A stretch of DNA of 52,407 bases, taken from the UHGV virus genome UHGV-0113213; one strand, written 5' to 3'. The DNA is from a virus. A program made the translations under genes and the position numbers. The notes below the pieces were generated by a model. That model saw nothing but the letters and a program-made list of their open reading frames with translations, made no database searches and was not told the DNA's origin. The stretch's first letter is position 1, and each line of letters opens with the position of its first letter. Positions 4,001 through 52,357 of the stretch are shown piece after piece.

Positions 4001-5578
4001 ATCGCCATCAAGTAAACTGATGGTGTCGCCTGCTGCAATGTATTCTGAATCGACTTTATCGACCGTTATCACTTTCCCATTGTTCGCCACGATACGACCG
4101 CCTAAACGCGCGCCTGCGCGGTTATTGTCGAGGATCTCGATTATATCCCCTGGCGTAAAGTGAATCGCATCACGGGCCATTTTAAACGTGAATTTTGACG
4201 GCTCGCGTTTTGCTGTTTCTATCAGCCATTTACCAGCGCGGTGCGCTTGCCCGCGTGAAGTGCACCCGAACGCCTCCAACGTGGTTTCGTTATAACCATC
4301 ACGGGCGATTAGCTCATCATCTGCCACATACTCTTTTGATTGCTCCCAGCCGTTTTCCGGGTCAGTCCATGATACAATCACGGCGTTGTAGCATTCTGCT
4401 CGGGCGATACTTGAACGAGTGAACGCACCATCAACGACGTTTGCGTTTGTGATGGTGGCGATCGGGTCTTGTGGCGCATCAATCATCACGGTAAGGCGTT
4501 GTCCGTCCCATAACGCGATGCCTCGGAACATCCCGGCGATATTGTCCAGTAAATCGCGGGCGCTCATTTGCTCTGTAATGTAAGCATTAAGCGTCATGCG
4601 AGGCTCAAGGCCACCGTAACCATCATCAACCAACTGGTCGCAGTATCGGGAGAGCGTATATAATGCGCCGTCGTCAACGTCAATATAGCCAGCATGGCGG
4701 GCAAGACCGAAACGCTCGTTTTTAACCAGGTAACGGAAGATCCACGCGGGGTTATTGGTGTACGCCTTCTTGAAGCCGCCAAGCCACAAACCGGAATAAG
4801 TGCGCGTTTCCGGGCTATAGTTATCAGGAACGTCAACAATCAGCCCGCGCAGGTGATAAGTGCGGGTAGGTGTATCAGTGTACTGATCATGATCAATAAC
4901 CGCGCCAGCTACAGCTGTGTGGGGATATGACAAATTATCGTCGATTATTTCGCTGTAACTACTCCATCTCGTATCATTCTGCAATAGATCGCTTGTGCTA
5001 TCGGCCGTTACACGGCGAACGCGAATATCAAACGGCTTTTCATCTGGTGCATTGATAATATGCGCTTCAAGATATTCTCCTCTGATCTTGCCGGGGCCTA
5101 TAGTGACATCTTTAACAAGCGTCCACGTAGAAGAAGATGAAGGCTTGACATCAATCATCATCATAACCGATGTGTTATGTTGATTGCTTTGCTCGTCAGA
5201 TTGTACAAGTGAATCGACGCCGATATTCAGGCGAACGCGCGTAACGTTAGGATCTGATACAGTCCTGATTATTGGGGTATCGTGTTTCACCTGAGCGTTA
5301 ACAATAACGGTTGATTCAATGGCGTTAAAACCGTTAATAGGTGATTGATCTAACGTGCCGTTACGCCACGCCACGCTAACACCAGGGACACTTGTATTGC
5401 CGTTCGCGTCTGTAACAGGTGTATCATTAAGCATCACGCTATTTAATGGCGCTTTTGTATTTACAGGTCCATAAATCGGACCTTCAGAAATAATATCAAG
5501 TACACGATAAAATTGTTTATGGTATAGATTATCGTTAATTAAAGTCGGTGTTTTTGCTTTACCGCCGCCGCTACTCAT
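1001..5578 (-). CDS. J: Tail tip / host specificity protein J (central tail fibre), 1525 aa
   Basis: N-terminal ~830 aa and C-terminal ~300 aa resemble lambda J as recalled (e.g. LSVIDAISEGPI-like start, NGWE, AFGCTSRGQAHRAG motifs); follows I-K-L in lambda order. Confidence 0.9.
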   Translation of the reverse strand: MSSGGGKAKTPTLINDNLYHKQFYRVLDIISEGPIYGPVNTKAPLNSVMLNDTPVTDANGNTSVPGVSVAWRNGTLDQSPINGFNAIESTVIVNAQVKHDTPIIRTVSDPNVTRVRLNIGVDSLVQSDEQSNQHNTSVMMMIDVKPSSSSTWTLVKDVTIGPGKIRGEYLEAHIINAPDEKPFDIRVRRVTADSTSDLLQNDTRWSSYSEIIDDNLSYPHTAVAGAVIDHDQYTDTPTRTYHLRGLIVDVPDNYSPETRTYSGLWLGGFKKAYTNNPAWIFRYLVKNERFGLARHAGYIDVDDGALYTLSRYCDQLVDDGYGGLEPRMTLNAYITEQMSARDLLDNIAGMFRGIALWDGQRLTVMIDAPQDPIATITNANVVDGAFTRSSIARAECYNAVIVSWTDPENGWEQSKEYVADDELIARDGYNETTLEAFGCTSRGQAHRAGKWLIETAKREPSKFTFKMARDAIHFTPGDIIEILDNNRAGARLGGRIVANNGKVITVDKVDSEYIAAGDTISLLDGDGKFKKHQITGVNGNKITLAAAPAWIRNGTVFAVSTESAKPVLCRIISVAETENNSVYTIEAAQHDPNKQAVVDEGAIFEINNDTLNHFRVPSIENLKVVNIGSETVQCRATWETQTTTHRMTFEIRIYNTDGAVVKSYETTKYSYDFYGIDAGAYSLGVRGRNDTGMKGAESIVDLVIGAPASPIGVNWVPGVFQATVYPISKTTLTTDTAYEFYYAGKNQITDPAKITTSAQFTGRGYQWTFGGMNTGHTYYVYVRTRNAFGVSDFVEASGKPTENFDEISDYVTKDVMNSEQFKELVSDIKDLGDRTDIIESATADLKTATADLKTATDGLKADTDTLKKDTEDLYKKVEENADGIGKHEVRIDSLEVSNENVNNELAQTKASLQNASLALINNSLAQTNTRVTLTAQYKKGRNETKAQIDRIDNVIADEKKATAESLETITAEMNAMDSSTKGEIARVDKAIATETQARTEAISNVNASISSLENKTDASVSRLDKAISDETQARSDAITDVKADLTTLENSTNASVSRLDQAIADESSARAQAISGISAELGSVESDVDKNSDKIEQAKASLQNASIALINNSIAQSKMSTVIEAKYRKGQIKTKAEIARIDTAIADETQARAEAIASLEANINENISAKITDISTALATHEASSAEKFVQISASFDDVNSSITEWSQAMSTADEALSTKIDQLKVTVNGNTTAIETTSKALTDFKGNVDASYSIKIATDNNGMKYATGMSLGLTGSGTDVQSQCIFLVDRFVLMTAANGTYQTPFYVTNGAMYVREAFIKDGSIDNAKIGNVITSYNWNGSDQGWAIVKDGWATFNNVTVRGTVYANSGVFNGTVYATDGKFRGTVEATSFVGDVASMSVIPEATFPAQSGSGSRSVTKNYWDSSSSALSKTVYVMIPYNLAYYTYNQSGRINVTININGNSKTIDIERAASTPHKSDVAVHCVSGITSQHVSVTVTENYTNTSSAAIRRPGLVLVTRSSGSWS
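2080..3080. repeat. In-frame tandem repeat region inside J (approx 100-bp units plus short 21-bp direct repeats) encoding coiled-coil heptad-like repeats
   Basis: Repeated DNA units e.g. GCCTGCGTTTC.TC.G.TATTGCTTT at ~2130, 2480, 2590; protein repeats ETQAR..AI and TATADLKTATADLK; internal duplication ASLQNAS(L/I)ALINNS(L/I)AQ. Confidence 0.5.
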
Positions 5579-6799: not shown

Positions 6800-7504
6800 T
6801 TAACCTACCTTGCTGGAACCAGGGAAACAGGAGATCGGCAGTGCTGCCGGACGCGGGAAACGCAAACGGCAACCGCTAAGGCGGTGGCTGCATTTGTCTA
6901 ACGTTGGGTCACTTGTTGGTGTATCTTTATCAGTTGCGACCGGGCCGCCAGAATACATGCACCCGTCGCCTCTGTATTGCCACTGACAAACGTCAGCAAG
7001 GATGGTGCGCCCTGGGATAACGGCTTTATCTGCATCAATTGGCGTTGACAATTCATATTGCACCTGATCCGCTGTTTCTTCGCTCATTGCTTCAACGACG
7101 TAAAAAGATACAGCCTCAATAGATGGATCTGCGTCTGGATTGCCGTTAGGGAAGTTAACGGCGTCCAGGTATTTAACCTCCACCTGGCGGCGCGTAACCT
7201 TCATGCCTCTTAGGTCGTTGAAATCGTTATTCATCCCCGTAATGAGTCCGCCGATGTTGGCTACAACCATTTGAGGGCGCGAATAAACGCCTTCGTTTTT
7301 CATTTCGAAGCCAGTAGCCTCGATCGGGTAGCTGTTGTAAGCCACACCCTTCCAGATAACCGGGCCGTAATAGCCATTCGCGCCGGAATGGAAGCGGATA
7401 ACCTCGCCACCCAGGGGCGTGAGGTCTAATTCAAACAAGTCAATTACCGCGCCGACTCCGGCATCGACGGAATCAATAATCATTTCTCTCGGAATATTGC
7501 GCAT
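6800..7504 (-). CDS. L: Minor tail protein L
   Basis: 234 aa; similarity to lambda L as recalled (VTGM, VRRKV, RFLDAVNF-like, FPGR, C-x-W-x-YRGD-C, CSKxLSGC motifs). Confidence 0.85.
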   Translation of the reverse strand: MRNIPREMIIDSVDAGVGAVIDLFELDLTPLGGEVIRFHSGANGYYGPVIWKGVAYNSYPIEATGFEMKNEGVYSRPQMVVANIGGLITGMNNDFNDLRGMKVTRRQVEVKYLDAVNFPNGNPDADPSIEAVSFYVVEAMSEETADQVQYELSTPIDADKAVIPGRTILADVCQWQYRGDGCMYSGGPVATDKDTPTSDPTLDKCSHRLSGCRLRFPRPAALPISCFPGSSKVG

Positions 7505-7522
7505 TTTCTCACCTTGTCATTC

Positions 7523-7587
7523 TGTGATCTGCGTCACGCTAAATCATACCAAAATGGATTGATCGCGGTTTTTACAATATGTATATT
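7523..7587 (+). promoter_or_regulatory. Moron promoter: CRP-like site TGTGATCTGCGTCACG (7523-7538), TACCAAAATGGA element, -35 TTGATC (7559-7564), 17-bp spacer, -10 TATATT (7582-7587)
   Basis: Hexamers and spacing read directly; CRP-like centre ~63 bp upstream of predicted start site (class I-like position). Confidence 0.5.
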
Positions 7588-7633
7588 TTACTCAAACGGA
7601 AGCATAGTTAACAAAATGGCGCGGAGGTGCGTT

Positions 7634-7822
7634 ATGACTGAAAAGCTATGGAAGTTGACGGTATTCATGACAGACGGTAGGGAAAAGGTTATCGCCCTGT
7701 ATGACGACGAGGGTGAAGCATTGGTTGACGCGCTTTTACTTGCTGAGGATGACCGCCTTTTGGGATACCAGATCGAACCTGTCAAATATGAGGCTAACAA
7801 AAATGAAAAAATACAGTCTTGA
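7634..7822 (+). CDS. Small acidic protein (62 aa), moron gene 1 between L and M
   Basis: ATG with GGAGGTG RBS; strongly acidic composition (DDEGEALVDALLLAEDD); opposite strand to tail operon. Confidence 0.6.
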   Translation: MTEKLWKLTVFMTDGREKVIALYDDEGEALVDALLLAEDDRLLGYQIEPVKYEANKNEKIQS

Positions 7823-32504: not shown

Positions 32505-32694
32505 TGTCGTTACTCCGTCCGTAAATATGGACAGGCTCAACTGGTACTGCTGGCAATTCGCCATCATTTAACTCGCTCGCCATGCCTAATATTAAACGCG
32601 CTTCAGCACCAGTGACTTTCTTGCACCATGCGTCGCCTGTTTTATCTTCAAATAAGATAACGGCAAACTGATCGTTTATTTCCAGCTTATCCAT
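32491..32694 (-). CDS. Hypothetical acidic protein (67 aa)
   Basis: ATGA overlap with Q stop. Confidence 0.4.
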   Translation of the reverse strand: MDKLEINDQFAVILFEDKTGDAWCKKVTGAEARLILGMASELNDGELPAVPVEPVHIYGRSNDNENN

Positions 32695-33422
32695 TATTCA
32701 CCCCGTGTCACTCGTTTGATTTCGCTTTCCGCGCGAGATTCTTCTTTGAATAGCTCCGCTATGGCGTCTTCATAGAAAACCCTGTATTTCTTCCACCATG
32801 TTGATCTGCTTACCGGGAAAACAAGCTGGTTAACAGCCTGCCGGACGAGATCTACAGGGAAACGCGAGTACCCGCGCCCGCCGCAGTGCTGGCACGTTTT
32901 GAATACTGGCATTTCCGCCGCTTCGCTGGCTGCTTTATCCGGTACTTCGCCACGCCCCTTGCACCTCTGGCAATGGTTTTTAACGTAGCCTTTGCCGTTG
33001 CACCGCGAGCAAACTGTCGATGTGTATTCACAATATGGATTCGGTAAAAGCCCGTTACCTCCGCACTTAGGGCAAACCTTTTCGGTAGCCGCACTTTGGC
33101 AGTAATCCCGAAACGCGAAAACGGCAACAAGAATAATAAGATCATTGCGTTGTTCTTCATTTAATTCCATCACGTATTCGTAATCTTTCGCCATAACCCT
33201 TAAACGCTCTGTAAGCAAAATTACGGCCCTGTGTTTTTCAGCTTGCGATAGCTCCATTTTCCCTAAAAAAGCACTATAGCCAAGCTCTACGCGCGATTGC
33301 GCCATACCAGCGGCGGTAAGCGCATCCGTCGTATTAAGTGCATCCGGGGATGTTCCCCGGCTTTCGTCTGATAATCGCGGTGATTTGGGAAAGTGGAATT
33401 TCAGAATGGATTCTAAATTCAT
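32694..33422 (-). CDS. Q: Late-gene antiterminator Q-like protein (242 aa)
   Basis: N-terminus MNLESILKFHFPKSPRLSD...AAGMAQS...AFLGK and multiple CxxC zinc motifs match my recollection of the Q antitermination family; located after NinG-RusA. Confidence 0.65.
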   Translation of the reverse strand: MNLESILKFHFPKSPRLSDESRGTSPDALNTTDALTAAGMAQSRVELGYSAFLGKMELSQAEKHRAVILLTERLRVMAKDYEYVMELNEEQRNDLIILVAVFAFRDYCQSAATEKVCPKCGGNGLLPNPYCEYTSTVCSRCNGKGYVKNHCQRCKGRGEVPDKAASEAAEMPVFKTCQHCGGRGYSRFPVDLVRQAVNQLVFPVSRSTWWKKYRVFYEDAIAELFKEESRAESEIKRVTRGE

Positions 33423-33604: not shown

Positions 33605-34008
33605 TGCTCACCCCACATATTAGTCGCATATTCGTTAATATCCGGTAGCAGGTCGCCGCGTTCGCATACCTTAATAAACAATCGCCCGCCTTTTACCTTC
33701 CGGCAGCGGACAATTTTTATTGAGTCGATTTGCCCATCATCATTCCAGAATCCGGCACAAGTAAGGCTGTCAAAAAGGCATTTTGGGATATTATCAAGAT
33801 CTCTGACCCGGTTATCCGGCGGCGCGGCATAAATGGCGATTGCCAGTCGGCAAGATAGGTTAATGTCTAAATTTAATAATTCGATGATGTCTTTTACTTG
33901 TTCCCGGTATTCCTTCCCCACTTCGCTGATATAGTGAAAACCTCGTGAATGTCGGTAATATCGGTTATTAGATGGCGGGTAAGGTAGGCTAAATGTATAC
34001 TCGTTCAT
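33601..34008 (-). CDS. rusA: Holliday junction resolvase RusA
   Basis: Motifs LPYPPSNNRYYRH, RDLDN, GFWNDD, VKGGRL match RusA family. Confidence 0.85.
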   Translation of the reverse strand: MNEYTFSLPYPPSNNRYYRHSRGFHYISEVGKEYREQVKDIIELLNLDINLSCRLAIAIYAAPPDNRVRDLDNIPKCLFDSLTCAGFWNDDGQIDSIKIVRCRKVKGGRLFIKVCERGDLLPDINEYATNMWGEQ

Positions 34009-34610
34009 GCTGCCTTTCTCCTTAAGGCGTCCAATTTTGCCTGATAGATGTTTATTAGCTCCTTACATTCTGCGATCGTCCATTTATGCGTATCATTGTT
34101 GTTCTCCAGCGCTTCCACCCTGGCGAGGCCAATTTTTCGAATCAGTGCTGGGCGATAGGCTTGTATGTTTCCGTCTAATGTCTGATTGCAGTGCCTACAT
34201 TGTTTATGGACGTTATCTTCATTGAAGCGAAGGTGTCCGGCGGCGGCGACCGTCCTGTAATGCCCCGCATCGTATCCGCATTGCTCACCGTAGTAAGTCC
34301 CGCAGGATATGCACGGCAACCGCGCGTCACGTTCGCGGATATAGGCATTAAATACCGCTTGTGCCTGCTTTAACCAATAGCTACGCGGATTTAACTGCTT
34401 CCGCTTCCGGTTGCGTTCTTCCCGCTGGCTATCACGGCGTTTCTTCCGTTCCATAGCCTTCATAGCCTTCTCACGGTCGCGGCATAACTGGTCAAATTTC
34501 AGTTCTTCCAGGCATTCGTCGCTGCACCACGTTTGATTGTGATATTTAGGCTCAAAAAAAACGCCGCAGCATTTGCAACGGCGTCTTATTGGTTTCTTAG
34601 GGTTTTGCAT
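34005..34610 (-). CDS. ninG: NinG / Rap recombination protein
   Basis: Start moved to MQNPKKPIRRRCK; motifs RSYWLKQAQ, LPCISCGT, DAGHYRT, LRFNE.N.HKQC as in lambda NinG. Confidence 0.85.
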   Translation of the reverse strand: MQNPKKPIRRRCKCCGVFFEPKYHNQTWCSDECLEELKFDQLCRDREKAMKAMERKKRRDSQREERNRKRKQLNPRSYWLKQAQAVFNAYIRERDARLPCISCGTYYGEQCGYDAGHYRTVAAAGHLRFNEDNVHKQCRHCNQTLDGNIQAYRPALIRKIGLARVEALENNNDTHKWTIAECKELINIYQAKLDALRRKAA

Positions 34611-34624
34611 AAAAACCACCCCAA

Positions 34625-34801
34625 TTATTTTTGATTCTCTGTTTCGTTCAGCCTTTCGGCGTGTCCGGCCCTTAGCGAGTGATCTACACATTCGTTGTAC
34701 TCGTTACATTCTCCTTTTTTCGTGCTGCATACATTGCACATTGCACGCATGACGCTTTCTCGTTCATAGTCGTCATGCCATTGGTAATCATCAAAAGACA
34801 T
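34625..34801 (-). CDS. Small Cys-rich protein (58 aa; CNVCSTKKGECNEYNEC), not in ORF track
   Basis: ATG with AAGGAG RBS; overlaps spurious N-terminal extension of NinG track ORF in another frame. Confidence 0.4.
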   Translation of the reverse strand: MSFDDYQWHDDYERESVMRAMCNVCSTKKGECNEYNECVDHSLRAGHAERLNETENQK

Positions 34802-40524: not shown

Positions 40525-40929
40525 TCAAAACGGGATATCGTCATCAAAGTCCATCGGCGGATTATTCCCGTTATTATTCTGCTGCTGCGGAGGCGCTTTC
40601 TGCTGCTGGCCTTGTTGGTTAACGTTCATGAATTCAAATTCGTTAACCGCCACTTCTACCGCCGTTCCCTTCGTGCCGTCGTTCCGGTCATATTGCCGAA
40701 CATCCAGGCGACCGCTTACCACTATTTTTCCACCCTTGCGGATATGTGGCGCTAATTTTTCCGCACGCTCACCAAATACCAGGCAAGTGACCCACATTGT
40801 CCGCTTATTATCGCCGTAGCCATTCGTTACAGCTAACGGAAAACTACCAATCGCTTTCCCGTTTTGTGTGTAGCGAACCTCCATATCATTACCGATATTC
40901 CCGCCCAGCGTGATTGAATTTAAACTCAT
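40525..40929 (-). CDS. ssb: Single-stranded DNA-binding protein
   Basis: OB-fold-like N-terminal region, Gln/Asn/Pro-rich linker, acidic C-terminal tail DFDDDIPF. Confidence 0.85.
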   Translation of the reverse strand: MSLNSITLGGNIGNDMEVRYTQNGKAIGSFPLAVTNGYGDNKRTMWVTCLVFGERAEKLAPHIRKGGKIVVSGRLDVRQYDRNDGTKGTAVEVAVNEFEFMNVNQQGQQQKAPPQQQNNNGNNPPMDFDDDIPF

Positions 40930-41573
40930 TAACCCATCTCCCCGTTAAGCTCTGCTACCCGGATGTCATAAACATCTTTTGCCTTGATTCGATGTTCCGA
41001 TCCTTCCGGTAGTAATTTCCAGCATTTGCCAAATATTTCACGCAGCTTGTTAGCGTCCTGCGCTTTCGCTGCTGCATCACAGAAACGTGCTAATACTTCA
41101 TCAGGATTTGGCGGCGCTTTCTGCTGCTGTGGTTGTTGTTTTGGTGGGTTTTTCTGCTGGCGAGGCTGCTGGCCTGTCTGCTTAGCGTATGCGTCAGTAT
41201 CAGGATCTCGCGCATCATCAATGCAGAATAAACCGTTCAAAGCGTATTTTCGCGCGTAACTTGATGTCGCACCTGTTAGCTGGCTTGCGTCCATTCCCTT
41301 CTTGCTTTCTTCTTCCCTGGCGTAAGCCGTTACCGCTATTTCGTCTTCACCGTCGCTTAGCGTCGCCGTAGCTTTCACATAATAGCGATTGCCGATCAGG
41401 ACAATTTCATCGCTTACAGTCAGCGTAATACTTTGAAGCAGTGGTTTAACCGCCTCTAAAATATCCTCCGCCGACCTGTAATTATATCCACCAAAATTAT
41501 TACGCTGATTTTTCGGCGCGTTCAGCGTTTGCTGAATCGTCCATAGCTTTTTATGTAACTCTGTTTTCACCAT
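40929..41573 (-). CDS. erf: ERF-family single-strand annealing protein
   Basis: N-terminal motifs NFGGYNYRSAEDILEAVKPLL typical of Erf; Gln/Pro-rich C-terminus; adjacent to SSB. Confidence 0.7.
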   Translation of the reverse strand: MVKTELHKKLWTIQQTLNAPKNQRNNFGGYNYRSAEDILEAVKPLLQSITLTVSDEIVLIGNRYYVKATATLSDGEDEIAVTAYAREEESKKGMDASQLTGATSSYARKYALNGLFCIDDARDPDTDAYAKQTGQQPRQQKNPPKQQPQQQKAPPNPDEVLARFCDAAAKAQDANKLREIFGKCWKLLPEGSEHRIKAKDVYDIRVAELNGEMG

Positions 41574-42510: not shown

Positions 42511-43158
42511 TTATGGCAGGTTTACGATCTTCGCATCAACCACCACGCCTATAATTTTTGATTCTGGATTCATAGGGATTGGCGGATACAGCGGATTGAG
42601 CGAACGTAAAAGCCTTTGACCTCCATCAATAATCAACTGTTTAAACGTCGGTATCTGCCCTTCCTCAAGCTGGGCTATAACCAGTTTGCCGTCAATAGCT
42701 GGCGCGTGCGGGTCCACAAGTATCATCGTCCCCGCCGGGATGCTCAACCCCTGCGGCGCGTTCATTGATTCACCTTTGGCAACCAGCCAGTAACTGTCAT
42801 CTGAACAAATAACGCTAGTCGTAACGTGTCGTAATGCTGAACGCCTTGCGTCATCCATATTGTTTACTGTGTCCTTCCAGTCAATAACCGGGTAACTACC
42901 TAAATCACGCGGCGGCACGGCCTGAAGTGTATTAGAAACAGAATCATCAATGACCATGCCATCATGTGTAACAGTAAACTGCCGACGACCAAGCTCGCGC
43001 ATAATCCGCGCAATATCTTCAAGATTTGGCTCTCGGCGACCGTTCAGCCAGTGTGACAGGCCGCCTTTAGTTATCCCCATACGATCCGCGAGTGAATCCT
43101 GGCTCATGCCCTGCGCCCGCATGAGCTGCTTTGCTAAGTCATACCATTTTGTTTTCAT
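42511..43158 (-). CDS. cI: CI-like repressor (HTH_XRE plus S24 LexA-type peptidase domain)
   Basis: N-terminal HTH (MSQDSLADRMGITKGGLSHWLNGRR), C-terminal autocleavage-type domain with Ser (GESM) and Lys (KQL) region. Confidence 0.85.
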   Translation of the reverse strand: MKTKWYDLAKQLMRAQGMSQDSLADRMGITKGGLSHWLNGRREPNLEDIARIMRELGRRQFTVTHDGMVIDDSVSNTLQAVPPRDLGSYPVIDWKDTVNNMDDARRSALRHVTTSVICSDDSYWLVAKGESMNAPQGLSIPAGTMILVDPHAPAIDGKLVIAQLEEGQIPTFKQLIIDGGQRLLRSLNPLYPPIPMNPESKIIGVVVDAKIVNLP

Positions 43159-43356: not shown

Positions 43357-43463
43357 AAACAAATATCACGCAACGGCGGGATCTGTTGAGCGGTCAGTCA
43401 CTGCTATCTAATGCTAATGGGATGCCCGCCCGCGCGTTCACTCTAACCATAGGAGAAAATGCG

Positions 43464-43730
43464 ATGAGTATAAACATGATTAGTAAAGCATGGAACGTAA
43501 AACTTAATAGCCCGATTCAAAAACTTGTCTTAATGGCTCTGGCTGAAAAGGCAGATAACAAAGGACGGGTACATGATGCATCACGCAAAGAAGTAGCCGC
43601 AATGTGTGAACTTCCTGTTCATACGGTACATGATGCCTTCGCCGCGTTAATGGATAAAGGATTTGTTTGTCGTCTTGATGCATTCAGTGATGTCTATGTA
43701 GTGATGTTGCCGGGGGGGGATGATCTATGA
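43464..43730 (+). CDS. Winged-HTH protein (HTH_36-like), first gene of rightward operon; replication-initiator N-terminal module or Cro analogue
   Basis: AGGAG RBS; segment SPIQKLVLMALAEKADNKGRVHDASRKEVAAMCELPVHTVHDAFAALMDKGFV. Confidence 0.55.
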   Translation: MSINMISKAWNVKLNSPIQKLVLMALAEKADNKGRVHDASRKEVAAMCELPVHTVHDAFAALMDKGFVCRLDAFSDVYVVMLPGGDDL

Positions 43731-44773
43731 AGTGGTTTAAGCATGACAGCGATGCGAACCGCGATGAAAAACTTCAAAACGTTTTGTTAGATTATGGCCT
43801 GGAAGGGTACGGGCTTTATTGGTATTGCCTCGAACTAATAACTTATGACGTAGATCAGCACAATCTGAATTTTGACCTACGACATGACGCGAGAATCATT
43901 GCGCGAAACGTCGGATCGACTGAAAAACGTATAGAAGAAATGATGAAATACTTCATCGAAATTGGTTTGTTTGAATGTTCTCAAGGCCACATAACTTGTT
44001 TAAAGTTATTGAAAAGGCTTGATCAATCAATGACTTCTAAAAGCGCGTACAGGGCCGCCATAAACACAGCTAAGGAGCAATTAAAATTAGAAAAGTTAAT
44101 CAATCCAACACAAAAAGGTCATGATAGGGTCATGACCGGGTCAGGAAAGGGTCATGAATTAGAAGTAGAAGAAGAAAGAGAAAAAGATATATACACTTCG
44201 TGTATTGTCGAAAATGAACAAAAAATGTTCAATCGGGATGGCGTAAACGAAGCGGCATTGCGTTGTCTTTCCTTCTACAACGACAAGGCAGGATGCAAAT
44301 GTCGTGATGCGAAGCCATTCATAGAACTACTGACAGAAACAAAAACACGTAAAGCATATACTGAGGAAGAAATCACATTAGTAATCGAGTGGGCTTTAAC
44401 GCAATGGCGTAGCCGTGGTGGAACACCTAAGCCTATCAACATTTGCCGGGTAACTAAATTTGATGGGTATCTGGCTGATGCTGAACAATGGCGCAAACTG
44501 TCAGCCACTGCAAACGCTGCCGATGTGGTGGAAGCATTTAACAGCACGTTTGACGGTCTGTTACCACATGCCGAACTGGATCGGGATCTTGAACGTAAGA
44601 TCTATGCGTTCACTGACTACCTGAAAGACAAAAGCATCACTGGCTTTATTGCTTACTTTGAGGCGTTCAAAAACACGGCTTCAGATTTTTACTTCGGCAA
44701 TGGCTTTACTGCGACACTGGATTTTCTACTTAAACCAAAAACGCTACGTGATACACGATGTGGCGCTCTTTGA
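43727..44773 (+). CDS. Replication initiation protein candidate (DUF4373-like N-terminus)
   Basis: N-terminus MKWFKHDSDANRDEKLQNVLLDYGLEGYGLYWYCLELI; ATGA overlap with upstream HTH gene. Confidence 0.55.
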   Translation: MKWFKHDSDANRDEKLQNVLLDYGLEGYGLYWYCLELITYDVDQHNLNFDLRHDARIIARNVGSTEKRIEEMMKYFIEIGLFECSQGHITCLKLLKRLDQSMTSKSAYRAAINTAKEQLKLEKLINPTQKGHDRVMTGSGKGHELEVEEEREKDIYTSCIVENEQKMFNRDGVNEAALRCLSFYNDKAGCKCRDAKPFIELLTETKTRKAYTEEEITLVIEWALTQWRSRGGTPKPINICRVTKFDGYLADAEQWRKLSATANAADVVEAFNSTFDGLLPHAELDRDLERKIYAFTDYLKDKSITGFIAYFEAFKNTASDFYFGNGFTATLDFLLKPKTLRDTRCGAL

Positions 44774-45147: not shown

Positions 45148-46071
45148 ATGCGCAAGTTAACACATGATGAACAGGTTGCGGCTATCGCTAAGGTTAATCA
45201 TGATGTCGAAGTGCTTGGGGAAATTGTCAATAACAGGACAAAAGTATCCTGCCGCTGCAAGGTTTGCAGTCACGAATGGTCGGCTAGACCTTACAATCTT
45301 AAAAGCGGTTACGGCTGCCCGAAATGCGCCGGAAAGATGAAATTATCACACGAAGAACAGGTTGCCGCTATCGAGAAGGTTAATTCTGATGTCGAAGTGA
45401 TTGGCGAAATAATAAACGGCGATACAAAAGCATTATGCCGCTGCAAAGTTTGTAATCACGAATGGTCGGCTAAACCTAACAACCTAAAAAACGGGCGCGG
45501 CTGCCCGAAATGTAAAGGTTTAAAAATCGCACAAAGACGAACATTATCACACGAAGAACATTTATCCGCTATCACTAAGGTAAATCATGATATTGAAGTA
45601 TTGGGAGAAATAATAAACGATAGGACAAAAGTATTATGTCGATGCAAGGTTTGTGATCATAAGTGGTCGCCTAGACCTTATGCTATTAAAAGCGGGCAAG
45701 GCTGCCCGAAATGTGCGAAACACGGTTTTTTGTCACACAATTTCGGCAAACTTTACATCATGGTTGATGATCCTGAAGTGCCTACACAAATGAAAATCGG
45801 CGTAAGCGTTAATGAGAACAAGCGAAGAAATCGGGTATTAAAAAGCGCACATAAATCAGGCGTTAGAATCCCTGATTTATGTGTCGTGAAAACGTTAGAA
45901 GGTCCAACCGAAAATATCCATGAATTAGAAAGCACGATGCATAAATATTTCAGCAATTATAAAATTAACTTTCCTGTAAAATTTGATGGCAGTAATGAGT
46001 TTTTCTATTACAGGCCGGAAGTATTCGACATGGTAGAAGAAGCATATAAAGAGATTGTTTGCTGTCAATGA
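45148..46071 (+). CDS. Protein with three tandem ~58-aa zinc-ribbon repeats and C-terminal T5orf172/GIY-YIG-like domain (307 aa)
   Basis: Repeat HEEQVAAI.KVN.DVEV.GEI.N..TK..CRCKVC.HEWSA.P.NLK.G.GCPKC three times; C-terminal GKLYIMVDD...KIGVSVNENKRRNRV. Confidence 0.55.
   Translation: MRKLTHDEQVAAIAKVNHDVEVLGEIVNNRTKVSCRCKVCSHEWSARPYNLKSGYGCPKCAGKMKLSHEEQVAAIEKVNSDVEVIGEIINGDTKALCRCKVCNHEWSAKPNNLKNGRGCPKCKGLKIAQRRTLSHEEHLSAITKVNHDIEVLGEIINDRTKVLCRCKVCDHKWSPRPYAIKSGQGCPKCAKHGFLSHNFGKLYIMVDDPEVPTQMKIGVSVNENKRRNRVLKSAHKSGVRIPDLCVVKTLEGPTENIHELESTMHKYFSNYKINFPVKFDGSNEFFYYRPEVFDMVEEAYKEIVCCQ
45157..45690. repeat. Three tandem ~175-bp DNA repeats (about 80 percent identical) encoding the zinc-ribbon modules
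   Basis: Direct comparison of the three units beginning CACGAAGAACAGGTTGC. Confidence 0.7.
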
Positions 46072-46104
46072 ATATACAAAATGTAAACATGAGGAAATAA
46101 CAAC

Positions 46105-47223
46105 ATGTCACAAAGAAAGATAAGCGATGAGCAATTGATCGCTGAATATAACAACGGTTTAACGTACAAGCAGATCGCTGAAAAATATGGCATGTCAAAA
46201 CGCAACGTCGAGCGCCTGGGCGCAAAGCTGGCGAAACGCGGTTTAATATCCACGCGTCGCGCGCCGGGTTTTGGCGTCAATGGCGAGTCATTGCTAGTTG
46301 ATAAGGATGGCAATGTGATTATGCGCTGGATTAAAACAGCCCGTGATCGCGATGAAATGGAAAGGCTAATGCAAGCGGCTTGCGATGCTTTCACGGAAGA
46401 CATGCCACGCGCTGAGGCTGTGCCAGTGCCGGAAATTGATTTCCAAAAAAGCCTGGCTCTTTATCCGGTATTCGATCTGCATATCGGTGCGCTTGCGCAT
46501 AAAGCTGAATGCGGTGAGAGCTACGACACCGGGATCGCCGAACGTGTGTTAAATGACTTCTTCGACTACGCGGTGGGCGCTGCGCCAATGTCTGAAAAGG
46601 CTGTTTTGTTGTTAGGAGGTGATATTCTTCACACTGACGGCCTGTTACCAGTGACGCCATCAAGCAATCACGTCCTGGATTGCGATTCACGCTACGCAAA
46701 ACTGGTTTACGTGGCGATCCGGTCGGTCCGGCGTGCGGTCGGGAAGATGTTACTAAATCATAAGTATGTCGAGATCCAGACATTATCCGGTAATCACGAC
46801 CAATCAGGGATGATCTGGCTACGTGCGGCGCTGGCGGCTTTTTACGAAGATGAACCGCGCGTAACTGTTGATGTGTCCCCTGCTATCGTTCACCACACAC
46901 AGTACGGCAAAACATTCCTTGCTTACCACCACGGACACACCATCAAAAAACCAGAAAATTTGTTGTCTGCCTGCGTCTCTGACTGGCGGGAGGATTTCGG
47001 CAAGTCGTCGGCGGTTTACGCTCATTGCGGACACTGGCATCACCAACGGCTGATTGAATCATCGTTAGGCGTTGTTGAGTATCACGGCACGTTAGCTGGC
47101 AAAGACGCTTATTCAACAAATGGCGGCTGGCGGTCGCGTCGGCTGGCTGCGGTAATAATTTACAGTCCTGATCATGGGGAAATCGGGCGCTTTGTTTATT
47201 ACCCTGAATATTCCATTTTGTAA
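46105..47223 (+). CDS. HTH-fused calcineurin-like metallophosphoesterase (372 aa)
   Basis: N-terminal HTH (LTYKQIAEKYGMSKRNVERL); phosphoesterase motifs DLHIG, GGDILHTDG, GNHD, GHWHH. Confidence 0.55.
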   Translation: MSQRKISDEQLIAEYNNGLTYKQIAEKYGMSKRNVERLGAKLAKRGLISTRRAPGFGVNGESLLVDKDGNVIMRWIKTARDRDEMERLMQAACDAFTEDMPRAEAVPVPEIDFQKSLALYPVFDLHIGALAHKAECGESYDTGIAERVLNDFFDYAVGAAPMSEKAVLLLGGDILHTDGLLPVTPSSNHVLDCDSRYAKLVYVAIRSVRRAVGKMLLNHKYVEIQTLSGNHDQSGMIWLRAALAAFYEDEPRVTVDVSPAIVHHTQYGKTFLAYHHGHTIKKPENLLSACVSDWREDFGKSSAVYAHCGHWHHQRLIESSLGVVEYHGTLAGKDAYSTNGGWRSRRLAAVIIYSPDHGEIGRFVYYPEYSIL

Positions 47224-47241: not shown

Positions 47242-48663
47242 ATGATAACCGAACAAGTAAACTCATTGCGGCAAGAAAGAGAATCTGCGGTTATCGGTGG
47301 CCTGCTGTTAGGTGGGCTTACTCCTAACGCGCAAGACGTTCTCGCTACTCTAGATCCTGAAGTATTCACTATTCCGCTATATAAGCGGGCTTTTGAAATT
47401 ATCCGTGCGCAAGCCAGAAACAGAAATCTCATCGACGCGTTACTGGTTGGTGATGAGATTGGTAATGAAAACTTTGTGCCGCTAATGCAAACGGCGCGAT
47501 CGTGCCCTTCTGCTGCCAACCTGAAGGGGTACGCACAGTTACTACGTGAAGAGCACCAACGTCGGCAGATGTTGGAACTCATCGACGATATGCGCTACAA
47601 ACTGGAAACTGGGACACTTGAGGTCGTCAAAGAGACGATGAAAGATTTTGATTCCCGGTATTCAAAATTAAAGGTAACAAAAGATCAGATTATCCCGGTG
47701 CTGTTGCGAGATGCTGTCCAGGAATACACGGAAGTGCTAAGTAAACGCATGGAGTGTGGCGTGAACTCTGACAACATCAAAACAGGGATTGACCCACTCG
47801 ACGAAATGTTAGGCGGCATTAACGCTACTGATATGGTGCTTATCGCCGGACGCCCAGGGTCTGGTAAATCGGCGTTGGCGTTGGCAATTGCCCGCGCGGC
47901 GGCTGAACGCCAATACCCTGGCGGAGAAGGTCAGCGGGTAGGCGTTTTGCTGTTCACGCTTGAAATGTCGCTCGATCAGATGACTGAACGCGCTATCGCT
48001 GGCGCAGGGAACTTGTCAACGGATTGCCTACGTAATCCGGTAAAACTGGATGACGAAGGGTGGGCGCACGTTGCCCAGGGGATGAGCGCACTTGCCGATC
48101 TCGACGTGTGGATTGTTGACGCATCACAGTTAACGGTCGAGGAAATACGCGCCACCACGGAACGGATGAAACAGGACCATCCTAACCTGGGAATGGTAAT
48201 GATTGACTACATCGGGTTAATGAAGCTGGCTAAGGCCGAACGTCATGATCTCGCCGTAGGGCAATTGTCGTGGTCATTGAAAATGATGGCGAAAGAGTTG
48301 CGCGTGCCAGTGGCGGCGCTGGCGCAATTATCCCGCCGCGTTGAAGAACGACCGAACAAGCGCCCTAACAATTCTGATCTGCGTGATTCCGGCAATCTGG
48401 AACAAGACGCAGACAGGATCATCATGGTCTACCGCGACGGCTACTACAACGAACAATCAGTTGCACGCGAGTACATGGAGATCATCGTTTCAAAAAACCG
48501 TCACGGGAAAACGGGTACTGTTTACCAGCGGTTTGATGATAACGGCAACATTTTACCATGCGACCAGGCCCGCGCGGCGTCCGCGTGTATCCAGTCAATG
48601 CAACAACGTCAGGCGACAAGCCGATTCTCCCAGCGAAATAACCAGACAAACTCATCTTTTTAA
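47242..48663 (+). CDS. DnaB-like replicative DNA helicase
   Basis: Walker A GRPGSGKS, DnaB-type motifs (MIDYIGLM, LAQLSR, DLRDSG), 473 aa. Confidence 0.85.
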   Translation: MITEQVNSLRQERESAVIGGLLLGGLTPNAQDVLATLDPEVFTIPLYKRAFEIIRAQARNRNLIDALLVGDEIGNENFVPLMQTARSCPSAANLKGYAQLLREEHQRRQMLELIDDMRYKLETGTLEVVKETMKDFDSRYSKLKVTKDQIIPVLLRDAVQEYTEVLSKRMECGVNSDNIKTGIDPLDEMLGGINATDMVLIAGRPGSGKSALALAIARAAAERQYPGGEGQRVGVLLFTLEMSLDQMTERAIAGAGNLSTDCLRNPVKLDDEGWAHVAQGMSALADLDVWIVDASQLTVEEIRATTERMKQDHPNLGMVMIDYIGLMKLAKAERHDLAVGQLSWSLKMMAKELRVPVAALAQLSRRVEERPNKRPNNSDLRDSGNLEQDADRIIMVYRDGYYNEQSVAREYMEIIVSKNRHGKTGTVYQRFDDNGNILPCDQARAASACIQSMQQRQATSRFSQRNNQTNSSF

Positions 48664-48739
48664 TTAACTTGAGAAACGGCTTACCGGAAAGTTTACCGCT
48701 TTCTGGTGGCTGTTTTCGCGCTTAAATCGAGGCTAAAAA

Positions 48740-49508: not shown

Positions 49509-49706
49509 ATGGACAAGGAACTGGATTTAACTGTTGAAGACCTGAGCACGATTGCGGAATACATGCGCGGCGATGATCCTGATCGCCCTGTTGTCGTTGA
49601 TATGAAAAAACTTAAAAACGATTTTATGGCTAGTTCAAGGCTCATTTCTTTATGGGCGATCATGTATGCGCGTGCACCGCGTGAAAATAGTAACGGTGTA
49701 TCATGA
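49509..49706 (+). CDS. Hypothetical protein (65 aa)
   Basis: ORF in operon. Confidence 0.4.
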   Translation: MDKELDLTVEDLSTIAEYMRGDDPDRPVVVDMKKLKNDFMASSRLISLWAIMYARAPRENSNGVS

Positions 49707-50134
49707 AACAAATTAGATTTGAAATAGTTAATGACGCTGTGAAAGAAAATGCTATCAGGCAGATAAGGGAAATACAGCCTGATAGCAAAAGCCCGCTGAT
49801 AATTACCATCCAGGAGAAAACCCGCTCGCTAAGCCAAAATGCGTTGCTTTGGGCGCTGTTGACCGACATTAGCGATCAGGTTAATTGGTACGGTAAGAAG
49901 CTGTCGCCGGAAGACTGGAAAGCGGTATTCACTGCCGGACTTAAGAAATATGGCGTAGTCCCTAACCTGGATAAATCAGGCTTCGTTGTATTGGGAACGT
50001 CTACAAGTCGAATGAGTAAATCAGAATTCAGCGAACTAATCGAATTGATTTACTCGTTCGGTGCGGAGCATGATGTTCAATGGTCGGGTGATACGAAATT
50101 AAATGAGGAATTCATAAAACGCTGGGGGCAATAA
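49703..50134 (+). CDS. ninB: NinB (Orf-family recombination mediator)
   Basis: Motifs VTIQEK.RSL.QN, VPNL, GFVVLG.STSRM, EFSELIELI as in lambda NinB. Confidence 0.8.
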   Translation: MKQIRFEIVNDAVKENAIRQIREIQPDSKSPLIITIQEKTRSLSQNALLWALLTDISDQVNWYGKKLSPEDWKAVFTAGLKKYGVVPNLDKSGFVVLGTSTSRMSKSEFSELIELIYSFGAEHDVQWSGDTKLNEEFIKRWGQ

Positions 50135-50325: not shown

Positions 50326-50973
50326 ATGAATAAACTTAAAGCAATTGGCGTAATTCGCCATCGTGTAGACCCGGACTACCCTTCTTTTGAGGTTGCCACA
50401 TACCGCAACGAATACCAATATGGATCATCTTTCCTTGTGGGTGTTCGCGCTGATACTGGCGGCACTTATTCAGTTATGGCGGCTTCATGTGTTTTTGAAG
50501 AATATAAAAATATAGATGATGACGGCATGAATAAAGAAAGTGAAATCATTGATGAATTAATCGAAGATGAGCGGCATGATTGCGATAAACCGGAAGTTAC
50601 AGAATGGAAGGCAGGAGAAAAGCCGCCGTGCGGAGTGTGGCTTGATTGCATTGGATCAAGAAGCGATATAGTGATTGATGTCGTTAAGTTTTTCTACCTG
50701 GGCGATAAGTGGTCTATTGCTCACAGTAAATTAGATACAGGTATTGAAACACCAATTGCATGGAAACAATACTCGTACCGCATTCACATTGACCCGAAAG
50801 AAAAAGCACTGGCGGAAATTGCGTTTGCGCTGGCTACTAAGGTGATTGGTGAAGATGCGGCAAAAGAAATTAATTTTAACCGCGACAACGAATTTTCATG
50901 CGATTATCGCAACATGGCGCAAGCTATTATCGACGGATGTATCGGACACGTTGAATACACGGGAGGTAAATAA
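50326..50973 (+). CDS. Hypothetical protein (215 aa)
   Basis: ORF in operon. Confidence 0.45.
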   Translation: MNKLKAIGVIRHRVDPDYPSFEVATYRNEYQYGSSFLVGVRADTGGTYSVMAASCVFEEYKNIDDDGMNKESEIIDELIEDERHDCDKPEVTEWKAGEKPPCGVWLDCIGSRSDIVIDVVKFFYLGDKWSIAHSKLDTGIETPIAWKQYSYRIHIDPKEKALAEIAFALATKVIGEDAAKEINFNRDNEFSCDYRNMAQAIIDGCIGHVEYTGGK

Positions 50974-51203
50974 TGGATAAAACAGGGACAATCCTTCTTA
51001 GTCGCCCTGCCATCTGCCGGATGCTTGGTGGAATTAGCAGGGGAACATTTTATTTATGGCGTAAAAAATGGGAACGGAACGGAACTCCGTTCCCCGACCC
51101 GGTTGATGTACTTGGTAACGGTCGTGGCGTTATGTACCGCTATCAGGACGTAATGCAGTTCTTTGATCAGATTGGTTTAACGTCAGCCAAAGATAATACA
51201 TAA
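50973..51203 (+). CDS. xis: Excisionase / AlpA-like HTH regulator
   Basis: 76 aa with HTH-like segment (ICRMLGGISRGTFYLWRKK), adjacent to and convergent with integrase. Confidence 0.55.
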   Translation: MDKTGTILLSRPAICRMLGGISRGTFYLWRKKWERNGTPFPDPVDVLGNGRGVMYRYQDVMQFFDQIGLTSAKDNT

Positions 51204-52357
51204 TCAGCAAACTTATTTAGCGCCTCCTTTTGTTCGTCAAGATAATCGTATTTATCGTACACCGCCAGTATTCCCCTTAATGAATGGCCTAAGATCTTTT
51301 CCGCAATATGTACCGGAACACCTATAGCTGAAAGGTGTGTCCGGCACGTCCTGCGGAGGTCGTGACAGGACCATGATTTACCGCCCATCCTTTTACGCAC
51401 GAAGATTGCGGCTACTTTTATCACCGATGCGTTTACTGGCCTGTTACCGCCGTTAATCACTGGCGGGAACACGTAATCATACTCATGGGAGGATAACACC
51501 TCCCTGAGCATTTTTATCGACAAATCTGATAATCCCCGCCTGATTTCACTTCTTGTCTTCGCCACCGCTGCCGGGACGGTCCACACCCCGTTATCCAGGT
51601 CGAGGTGCTCCCTTCTCATTTTCTGCAACTCCCCCACCCTGCACCCGGTGAGCAATAATAGCTTTAATGCTATCTTGTTCTGACGGTAGATCTGCGAATC
51701 ATCCACCGTTCGCCAGAAATGGCCTATTTCATCGCATGATAAATAACGCTCGCCAACCGCATAATTTTCGCCAACGTCAATAACCCTGATATTGTTTATC
51801 GCTGTACTGGTCATTAGCCCGCGCCTGATAGCGCTGTTCACAACAATCTTCATTCGCTTAAGTATCAGTCCCGCCGTAACCGCGTGGCCCGCCGCAGTGA
51901 TCTCGCCGAATATGTCCATCCATTGTTTCGTACTGACATCATCGGCAATATACTCACCGAATTTATCGACAACATGGCGCTTAAGCGCGCTCCTGACGTC
52001 ATTATATGCAACCAGCTTAATAACGTTCGGCAGGGATAAATAGTCACTCACAATGGCGCTTATTGTTAATTTGCCACGCTCAATACTTATCGCTTGCTTT
52101 ACTGAAACGGTTGGATTCTTCCCCTTCGCTAATAGTTCTTTGTATTCTGCCACCGCGTGGCGTGCATCTTTCAACGTCATGCTGCCGTAATCGCCGATCT
52201 TCATCCTTACAGGCTTACCGTTGAACCTGTACCGGAACTGGAAAATAATTTTCCCTTTCGGGCTTATCCTGGCAGACAAGCCATCGCGATCTGCTATCTC
52301 GTTCGGGCCGTCATATGGCTTGTTTGCTATTGCGCGTAATTTCGTATCCGTCAGCAT
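51167..52357 (-). CDS. int: Tyrosine integrase (P4-like family)
   Basis: N-terminal arm-binding-type region; C-terminal catalytic residues in HDLRRT and LGHS...Y context; 396 aa at prophage end. Confidence 0.9.
   Translation of the reverse strand: MLTDTKLRAIANKPYDGPNEIADRDGLSARISPKGKIIFQFRYRFNGKPVRMKIGDYGSMTLKDARHAVAEYKELLAKGKNPTVSVKQAISIERGKLTISAIVSDYLSLPNVIKLVAYNDVRSALKRHVVDKFGEYIADDVSTKQWMDIFGEITAAGHAVTAGLILKRMKIVVNSAIRRGLMTSTAINNIRVIDVGENYAVGERYLSCDEIGHFWRTVDDSQIYRQNKIALKLLLLTGCRVGELQKMRREHLDLDNGVWTVPAAVAKTRSEIRRGLSDLSIKMLREVLSSHEYDYVFPPVINGGNRPVNASVIKVAAIFVRKRMGGKSWSCHDLRRTCRTHLSAIGVPVHIAEKILGHSLRGILAVYDKYDYLDEQKEALNKFADYVLSLADVKPI

Follow-up and report, generated by a model that had tools for sequence, protein, structure and literature searches.

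A helix-turn-helix metallophosphoesterase next to the DnaB-type helicase of an mEp021-like phage: a candidate DNA-tethered nuclease rather than a helicase loader

The window, i.e. the whole stretch of 52,407 nucleotides of the virus genome UHGV-0113213 that was analysed, contains an ATG-initiated open reading frame of 372 codons that encodes a 372-aa protein in which an N-terminal helix-turn-helix (HTH) is combined with a metallophosphoesterase (MPE) (Table 1). The gene is considered real because its product matches PHROG 704 ("DNA repair exonuclease") over the full length (E=1.6e-138; residues 4-368 against positions 2-387 of the 390 in the profile) and because an identical protein cluster is already present in public data. 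The HTH and MPE motif strings quoted in the original prediction were all recovered from the product at the places given there, and the DnaB-like helicase that it placed directly 3' of the gene was confirmed with both Pfam and NCBIfam models. The helicase gene starts 18 nt past the HTH-MPE stop codon and has its own GGAGG, and a terminator-like site is absent from the intergene. The first terminator-like hairpin on this strand past the MPE-DnaB pair, with a 12-bp stem and a weak T tract, directly follows DnaB.

Table 1. Features in and around the HTH-MPE gene. Positions are those of the window, except in the last six lines, where they refer to the locus named; conservation is given for 144 family representatives.
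Feature	Position	Strand	Basis or remark
Q-like antiterminator	32694-33422	-	
Interval noted with the complete-genome appearance of the window	34005-34691	-	
SSB	40525-40929	-	
Erf-like annealing protein	40929-41573	-	
cI-like repressor, divergent; the rightward string is read from here	42511-43158	-	
Replication-initiator pair, at the head of the rightward string	43386..44773	+	PHROG 4617, 428, 345 'replication initiation'; Pfam Lin1244_N 4.5e-11
Small HTH initiator ORF, 114 aa	43386-43730	+	TTG start as listed
Lin1244_N / O-like protein, 348 aa	43727-44773	+	4-nt overlap with the HTH ORF
Three treble-clef zinc-ribbon repeats + T5orf172, homing-endonuclease-like	45148..46071	+	DUF4379 1.3e-19, T5orf172 5.4e-6, PHROG 681 endonuclease
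Shine-Dalgarno GAGGA, 9 nt 5' of the HTH-MPE ATG	46091..46095	+	Read from the sequence
HTH-MPE gene (PHROG 704 / T1 gp16 family)	46105..47223	+	ORF list, PHROG 704
N-terminal HTH, residues 1-50, GerE/LuxR / sigma-70 region-4-like; recognition region LTYKQIAEKYGMSKRNVERL (19-38)	46105..46254	+	AlphaFold helices, profile matches
Beta-hairpin and helix, connector from HTH to catalytic core	46279..46398	+	Model secondary structure, conservation
MPE core, residues 114-365	46444..47199	+	
MPE motif I, VFDLHIG (FDLHIG = 123-128)	46468..46488	+	D124, H126 both 100%
MPE motif II, GGDILHTDG (171-179)	46615..46641	+	G172, D173 100%; H176 97%; D178 92%
Family-specific loop VTPSSNHVLDCDSRY (T184, L191, D192, D194, R196)	46651..46695	+	94-99%
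MPE motif III, SGNHD (GNHD = 229-232)	46786..46800	+	N230, H231 99%
MPE motif IV, HHGH (275-278; H276)	46927..46938	+	H276 100%
MPE motif V, GHWHH (309-313)	47029..47043	+	H310 95%, H312 100%
DnaB-type replicative helicase, co-oriented with HTH-MPE	47242..48663	+	DnaB_C 1.8e-75, DnaB 4.3e-96
Terminator-like hairpin	48681-48709	+	
NinB	49703-50134	+	
Small HTH gene adjoining the integrase	50973-51203		
Integrase, opposite strand, at the window end	51167-52357	-	
HNH_3 beside MPE, L043 (mEp021)	4463-4966		
HNH_3 beside MPE, L054	6121-6621		
HNH_3 beside MPE, L003 (wksl3)	7172-7672		
HNH_3 beside MPE, L004 (Vibrio phage 49E27-1)	6208-6717		
HNH_3 beside MPE, L057	4527-4994		
Cysteine-rich ORF upstream of MPE, L016	5577-5870		

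Judged by its sequence, the window belongs to a temperate phage of the mEp021 / mEp010 / MagusPhagus group, with whose members it shares a 94-97% identical helicase and a 90-97% identical MPE. The mEp021 group constitutes the Nus-dependent non-lambdoid 'mEpimmI' coliphages (PMC11893012). The 52.4 kb, which include structural genes besides those for the repressor, the integrase, the Q-like antiterminator, NinG and NinB, look like a complete mEp021-like (mEpimmI) genome. Related modules were found as prophages in about 35 of 5,426 complete E. coli genomes. Starting downstream of the divergent cI-like repressor gene, the rightward string of genes runs in the order small HTH initiator ORF, Lin1244_N/O-like protein, zinc-ribbon/T5orf172 protein, HTH-MPE, DnaB, MarR-like protein and NinB. 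The replication initiator appears to be split into two ORFs, and is likewise annotated as two genes in MagusPhagus and mEp021. The zinc-ribbon/T5orf172 gene behaves like a mobile insertion between the initiator and the MPE gene: there is none in MagusPhagus, it encodes 495 aa with more repeats in mEp021, and it was found in 6 of 14 related viral loci. The leftward string comprises Erf, SSB, NinG/Rap, two methyltransferases and the Q-like antiterminator, and no exonuclease of the lambda-Exo/RecE type was recognised among the scanned ORFs of this operon. It is a thought that the HTH-MPE could be the source of nuclease for Erf-mediated recombination. The neighbouring DnaB is context for the HTH-MPE, and a functional partnership between the two is only putative.

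The architecture of the protein was derived from an AlphaFold2 model made with 32 homologues as input (mean pLDDT 81, pTM 0.72). The model has N-terminal helices at residues 8-16, 21-28 and 32-44, followed by a poorly ordered loop, a beta-hairpin (60-77), a long helix (79-97) and an alpha/beta sandwich that extends from about 114 to 365 and displays the beta-sandwich MPE fold. At the N-terminus, Pfam yields only weak, sub-threshold HTH matches; the first ~58 positions of a family profile built from 77 diverse members match a GerE-type HTH in the PDB (E=0.008), as well as the HTH domains of RhlR, DesR and NarL. The Pfam Metallophos models (PF00149 / PF12850) give no match, even with the C-terminal 256 residues alone at E<=10, and a precomputed match to PF12850 exists for only one listed homologue (P0201). 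The family is thus too diverged for these models and its superfamily membership rests on motifs and fold. The core is in this respect a blind spot in the coverage of Pfam-A, despite canonical motifs, a canonical fold and thousands of members, and many proteins of the family are annotated as 'hypothetical protein' because Pfam misses the MPE core.

All five motifs of the superfamily, i.e. DxH, GD, GNH[DE], H and GHxH, are present (D124/H126, G172-D173, G229-N230-H231-D232, H276 and G309-H310-x-H312, respectively), including motif IV, HHGH, which was not in the original prediction. Conservation was assessed in 144 representatives of 50%-identity clusters, next to the second set of 77 family representatives, and the key metal-binding and catalytic residues proved 95-100% conserved across the 144 distant relatives. 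Besides D173, motif II carries an extra His176 and Asp178. Other positions that are conserved in more than 90% of the family, and all of which are found in the window protein, are G69 and W75 in the hairpin, T184, D192, D194, R196, R252 and D334; we know of no counterpart of the loop that harbours T184 to R196 in the canonical five-motif MPE signature. Given the strict conservation of the catalytic residues, the enzyme is in all likelihood active, and the protein is apparently a dinuclear phosphoesterase with an intact active site.

The HTH-MPE belongs, as an ordinary member, to a phage family that is very large and already annotated, that of coliphage T1 gp16 and Rtp gp61. It is 96.8% identical to the 'DNA repair exonuclease' of Escherichia phage MagusPhagus and 90% identical to mEp021_11. 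Of 50,697 phage records searched by tblastn, 2,044 contain a homologue (main hosts Escherichia, Klebsiella, Salmonella, Vibrio, Campylobacter, Flavobacterium and Rhodobacter), and when 1.84 billion cluster representatives were scanned with HMMER, 4,297 matched at E<=1e-3 and 923 at the stricter E<=1e-30, which puts the family at about 4,300 clusters at 50% identity. The gene is reported to be persistent, or core, in the Drexlerviridae (PMC13164509), and the family also occurs in Jerseyvirus, Dhillonvirus, mEp021-like phages and numerous phages and prophages of marine and soil bacteria or habitats. The homologue in Rtp is annotated as 'highly similar to gp16 of phage T1'; other names in use are 'putative phosphoesterase', 'winged helix-turn-helix domain-containing protein', 'oxidoreductase' and 'DNA polymerase II small subunit'. 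The window protein shares full-length homology, the HTH-hairpin-MPE architecture and the conserved residues with the T1 gp16 family, being 54-66% identical to the T1-like proteins and 39-45% to those of Jerseyvirus and Dhillonvirus, and differs from it only in genomic setting, namely a temperate mEp021-like replication string ahead of DnaB. A functional study of the family was not found in the full-text literature (searched for T1 gp16, PHROG 704, Drexlerviridae MPEs, mEp021 etc.): there is no discussion of the gene in the paper on the mEpimmI genomes, and the Metis and PUA-Cal-HAD papers cover host MPEs and T-even denA, not the HTH-MPE family.

According to the original prediction, the protein occupies the position in which helicase loaders are usually encoded. 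A comparison of the genomic context of the family, at 80 loci on viral contigs and separately at 32 loci in bacterial genomes, did not bear this out. DnaB lies directly 3' of the MPE gene at only 14 of the 80 viral loci, all with proteins at least 90% identical to that of the window; the spacing is the same as in the window at 13 of these, and in the remaining one (L054), as also in mEp021, the MPE and DnaB genes are separated by an HNH endonuclease gene. Two loci (L115 and L122) have a distant DnaB-like match 3-4 kb upstream and are the sole exceptions among the non-mEpimmI loci of the 80. The T1-like phages sampled have an SF2-type helicase and a DUF3987 protein in place of DnaB, with the string SF2-type helicase, VRR-NUC, small genes and MPE at 23 loci and holin and endolysin genes downstream at 23. 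In Jersey-like phages the MPE gene lies in a small island among tail genes, and in Vibrio, Ruegeria, Sulfitobacter and Thermus phages it is found beside genes for lysis, HNH, methyltransferase, nucleotidase or dNMP kinase. A regular link to a DnaB-type helicase gene is thus missing in the T1-like and Jersey-like phages and at most prophage loci. The nearest DnaB homologues outside mEpimmI are of the P22 gp12 type (55% identity), and their genes border directly on the initiator gene 18, leaving no loader or MPE gene between the two. Taken together, the gene orders indicate that the adjacency to DnaB is an arrangement of one lineage (mEpimmI), and that the gene would function independently of DnaB.

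The 32 bacterial loci are mostly proteobacterial and apparently represent prophages, in which the MPE gene is often located a few kb downstream of NinB and 0.3-2 kb upstream of the terminase large subunit gene. Terminase-proximal MPE genes were seen at loci L016, L020, L021, L030 and L041, and at the viral loci L085, L087, L088, L102 and L119. The terminases belong to three Pfam types (Terminase_3, Terminase_6 and TerL_ATPase), and we take this linkage as a matter of position rather than as a sign of a role in packaging: in prophages and T1-like phages, it is apparently with the MPE gene that the early/DNA-metabolism block ends.

Two further associations were observed. Homologous HNH_3 genes (34-46% mutual identity) adjoin the MPE gene in several unrelated lineages (Table 1, and also L098 and L104), usually downstream and once upstream. 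These are probably homing endonucleases that target the conserved MPE gene; a functional MPE-HNH pairing is disfavoured, for HNH_3 genes are absent in most lineages, occur on either side and are also found elsewhere in the same genomes. Furthermore, at five proteobacterial (mostly beta-proteobacterial) prophage loci, the MPE gene is directly preceded by a small cysteine-rich ORF (68-97 aa) without a Pfam match (Table 1, with equivalents in L022, L024, L039 and L041), which may be a lineage-specific partner or merely a conserved neighbour.

The similarity searches concur with the context. Neither a profile nor a fold match to the helicase loaders (DnaC/IstB AAA+, lambda P, G39P and DciA) was obtained in Pfam, NCBIfam, PHROGs, PADLOC or the PDB, and the clear homology to a known loader that would have spoken against the original prediction was accordingly not encountered. 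With lambda P, DnaC/IstB and SPP1 G39P the protein has in common only a position between initiator and replicative helicase; it differs from them in sequence and fold, and its conserved active site and largely DnaB-independent distribution lack a counterpart there. The argument from the 'loader slot' therefore fails, because the adjacency is lineage-specific, because there is no similarity to loaders and because P22-type DnaB proteins do without such a gene.

What the enzyme may act on can be approached by comparison with known MPEs. The predicted fold is that of a generic MPE, nearest to the nucleases PolD-DP1, SbcD and Mre11 and to small phosphodiesterases, and the longest structural alignments are those to DP1/SbcD/Mre11. 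For the class III cyclic-nucleotide phosphodiesterases (Icc/CpdA/Rv0805), the comparison gave no clear preference for or against them over other MPE classes. When the profile of the catalytic part was compared with the PDB (hmmsearch), the matches were non-significant and all of them nucleases (T. maritima SbcD/Mre11 at E 0.17-0.47, and a 'Nuclease MPE' at E=1). Of the proposal that the protein is an Mre11/SbcD-like nuclease, the architecture and the general idea of a nuclease hold; membership of the family does not, as E. coli SbcD falls in PHROG 100 and the HTH-MPE in PHROG 704. The model moreover lacks a capping domain of the Mre11/SbcD type, since past motif V there are only the closing strands of the sandwich and the chain ends ~60 residues on, at 372. 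Direct kinship with E. coli SbcD was rejected (hhalign probability 0.8% and 3.2%). A Rad50/SbcC gene was not detected in the window by tblastn with E. coli SbcC and the C-terminal part of T4 gp46 (best E=0.96), and given the insensitivity of BLAST for SMC-like proteins this makes its absence likely, not absolute; there is no SMC-like ATPase among the flanking genes examined either. To our knowledge, the N-terminal HTH is absent from the Mre11/SbcD and PolD DP1 families. The HTH-MPE would thus resemble Mre11/SbcD in its working, and is not a member of that family.

Among phage enzymes, the MPE of the cluster A mycobacteriophages (Bxb1 gp47, A10ZJ24 Gp48) appears to be the nearest functional precedent, in that it is a phage MPE which stands alone and whose gene lies among replication genes, which in the case of Bxb1 gp47 are those for DNA polymerase, primase, Endo VII and helicase. 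A10ZJ24 Gp48 has DNase activity in vitro, degrading linear, plasmid and genomic DNA, and disrupts the integrity of the host genome, and replication of the phage DNA in M. tuberculosis requires the cluster A gene (PMC12287305). The cluster A protein differs from the HTH-MPE in its length (255 aa), its lack of an HTH, its match to Pfam PF00149 and its assignment to PHROG 221. Kinship of the HTH-MPE with Bxb1 gp47 was rejected (hhalign 36% with the single sequence, 4.8% profile-profile, with similarity limited to motifs III-V), and so was kinship with T5 A1, a protein of host-DNA degradation and DNA transfer that belongs to PHROG 1745 (4.9%, over a GNHD stretch of 19 residues only). With lambda NinI, the lambda protein phosphatase of the PPP family, the protein shares that it is an enzyme of the MPE superfamily from the early-right/nin region of temperate coliphages; the PPP signatures (GDxHG / GDxVDRG / GNHE) are not carried by the HTH-MPE.

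We infer that the substrate is a nucleic acid, given that the protein has an HTH, that DP1/SbcD/Mre11 give the longest structural alignments and that the weak sequence matches in the PDB are exclusively to nucleases. Our tentative proposal, to which we attach somewhat less than even confidence, is that the HTH-MPE is a DNA-tethered, Rad50-independent nuclease that acts on intermediates of phage replication and recombination, and not a helicase loader, the DnaB adjacency being confined to a single lineage. The HTH domain would hold a nuclease of the Mn2+/Fe2+ type on the DNA, where it would trim or nick phage DNA ends or branched replication and recombination intermediates in the absence of a Rad50/SbcC partner, and thereby assist replication and the DNA synthesis that depends on recombination, together with NinB, NinG/Rap, Erf and SSB of the phage. 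The gene is kept as core in several phage groups, usually within or at the end of a DNA-metabolism block.

A nuclease could also be aimed at the host. It is unlikely, though worth some weight, that the HTH-MPE degrades the host chromosome for shut-off and nucleotide salvage, thus supplying dNMPs to phage synthesis. The activities of Gp48 described above would fit such a role, as would the nucleotidase and dNMP kinase genes that follow the MPE gene in Thermus phage Lalka27a, the dNMP phosphatase gene in Ruegeria phage DSS3-P1 and the polynucleotide kinase or dNMP kinase gene that comes after it in Drexlerviridae without the SH3 gene (PMC13164509). Gp48 is, however, of another family, and since the window phage is temperate (with a cI-like repressor and an integrase) and carries the gene in its replication string, it is unlikely that we are dealing with an indiscriminate destroyer of host DNA. 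Expression would probably take place before or during the lysis-lysogeny decision, when an indiscriminate DNase would preclude lysogeny, and the family is common in prophages. A controlled nuclease that processes ends or structures would fit these circumstances better.

Improbable, in our estimate, is a role in the healing of nucleic-acid ends, in which a 3'-phosphatase or 2',3'-cyclic phosphodiesterase makes damaged ends of DNA or tRNA fit for religation, perhaps together with a polynucleotide kinase, and so repairs damage or counters host nucleases. MPE-type phosphoesterase domains heal ends in bacterial Pnkp (Clostridium thermocellum), which provides a precedent, and the HTH suits a nucleic-acid substrate. 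In the Drexlerviridae that lack the SH3 gene, moreover, polynucleotide kinase is among the commonest genes directly after the MPE gene (PMC13164509).

The original prediction also raised an anti-defence role. A phosphodiesterase would here destroy the nucleotide signals of immune systems (CBASS, Pycsar, type III CRISPR, Thoeris), which we consider quite improbable. A DNA-binding type of HTH has no obvious role when the substrate is a soluble small molecule, and the gene is located within strings for replication and DNA metabolism and not in variable accessory regions. Known phage enzymes that degrade such signals, such as Acb1, Apyc1 and AcrIII-1, have other folds than that of MPEs, which counts against this role. 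The persistence of the gene in the Drexlerviridae (PMC13164509) does so too, and a link in the literature was not found.

Very improbable is the reading in which the protein is primarily a DNA-binding regulator, or a factor of the recombination-directionality (RDF) type, with the enzyme domain in a second role. An HTH of the GerE/LuxR/sigma-region-4 type is typical of transcription activators, and the location of the gene directly before the lysis cassette in T1-like phages and shortly before terminase in several prophages is frequent for regulators of late genes. Bxb1 gp47, which is likewise an MPE, carries the annotation of RDF for its phage (P0391 'RDF protein'), a function reportedly established by the Hatfull laboratory. 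The window phage, however, is already equipped with a Q-like antiterminator, and a small HTH gene adjoins its integrase; the strict conservation of the catalytic residues argues against a merely regulatory protein.

Hardly credible, finally, is a loader or adaptor that would bring the phage DnaB to the origin once the initiator is bound there, filling the slot that lambda P or SPP1 G39P occupies elsewhere: the location between initiator genes and DnaB and the fixed short spacing at 13 related viral loci and in the window speak for it, but the family resides mostly in phages without an adjacent DnaB (including all 23 T1-like helicase/VRR-NUC loci), HNH insertions between MPE and DnaB are tolerated, and the strict conservation of the catalytic residues would be left unexplained.

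The proposal of a DNA-anchored nuclease can be extended, as a long shot, to a form in which the Rad50-independent HTH-MPE forms an integral part of the replication machinery in thousands of siphoviruses and, in the mEp021-like lineage, nicks or processes initiator-bound origin or fork DNA such that a single-stranded entry site for the phage DnaB arises. If true, this would make it a nuclease-based substitute for a helicase loader.

The locus in itself changes little, the protein being already present in public databases, and its value lies in the family as a whole. Assignment of a role, be it as a nuclease of replication and recombination, as a degrader of host DNA or in the healing of ends, would fill a gap in our view of how small siphoviruses with minimal replication sets handle their DNA, and would correct or justify an annotation that has been propagated through thousands of genomes.
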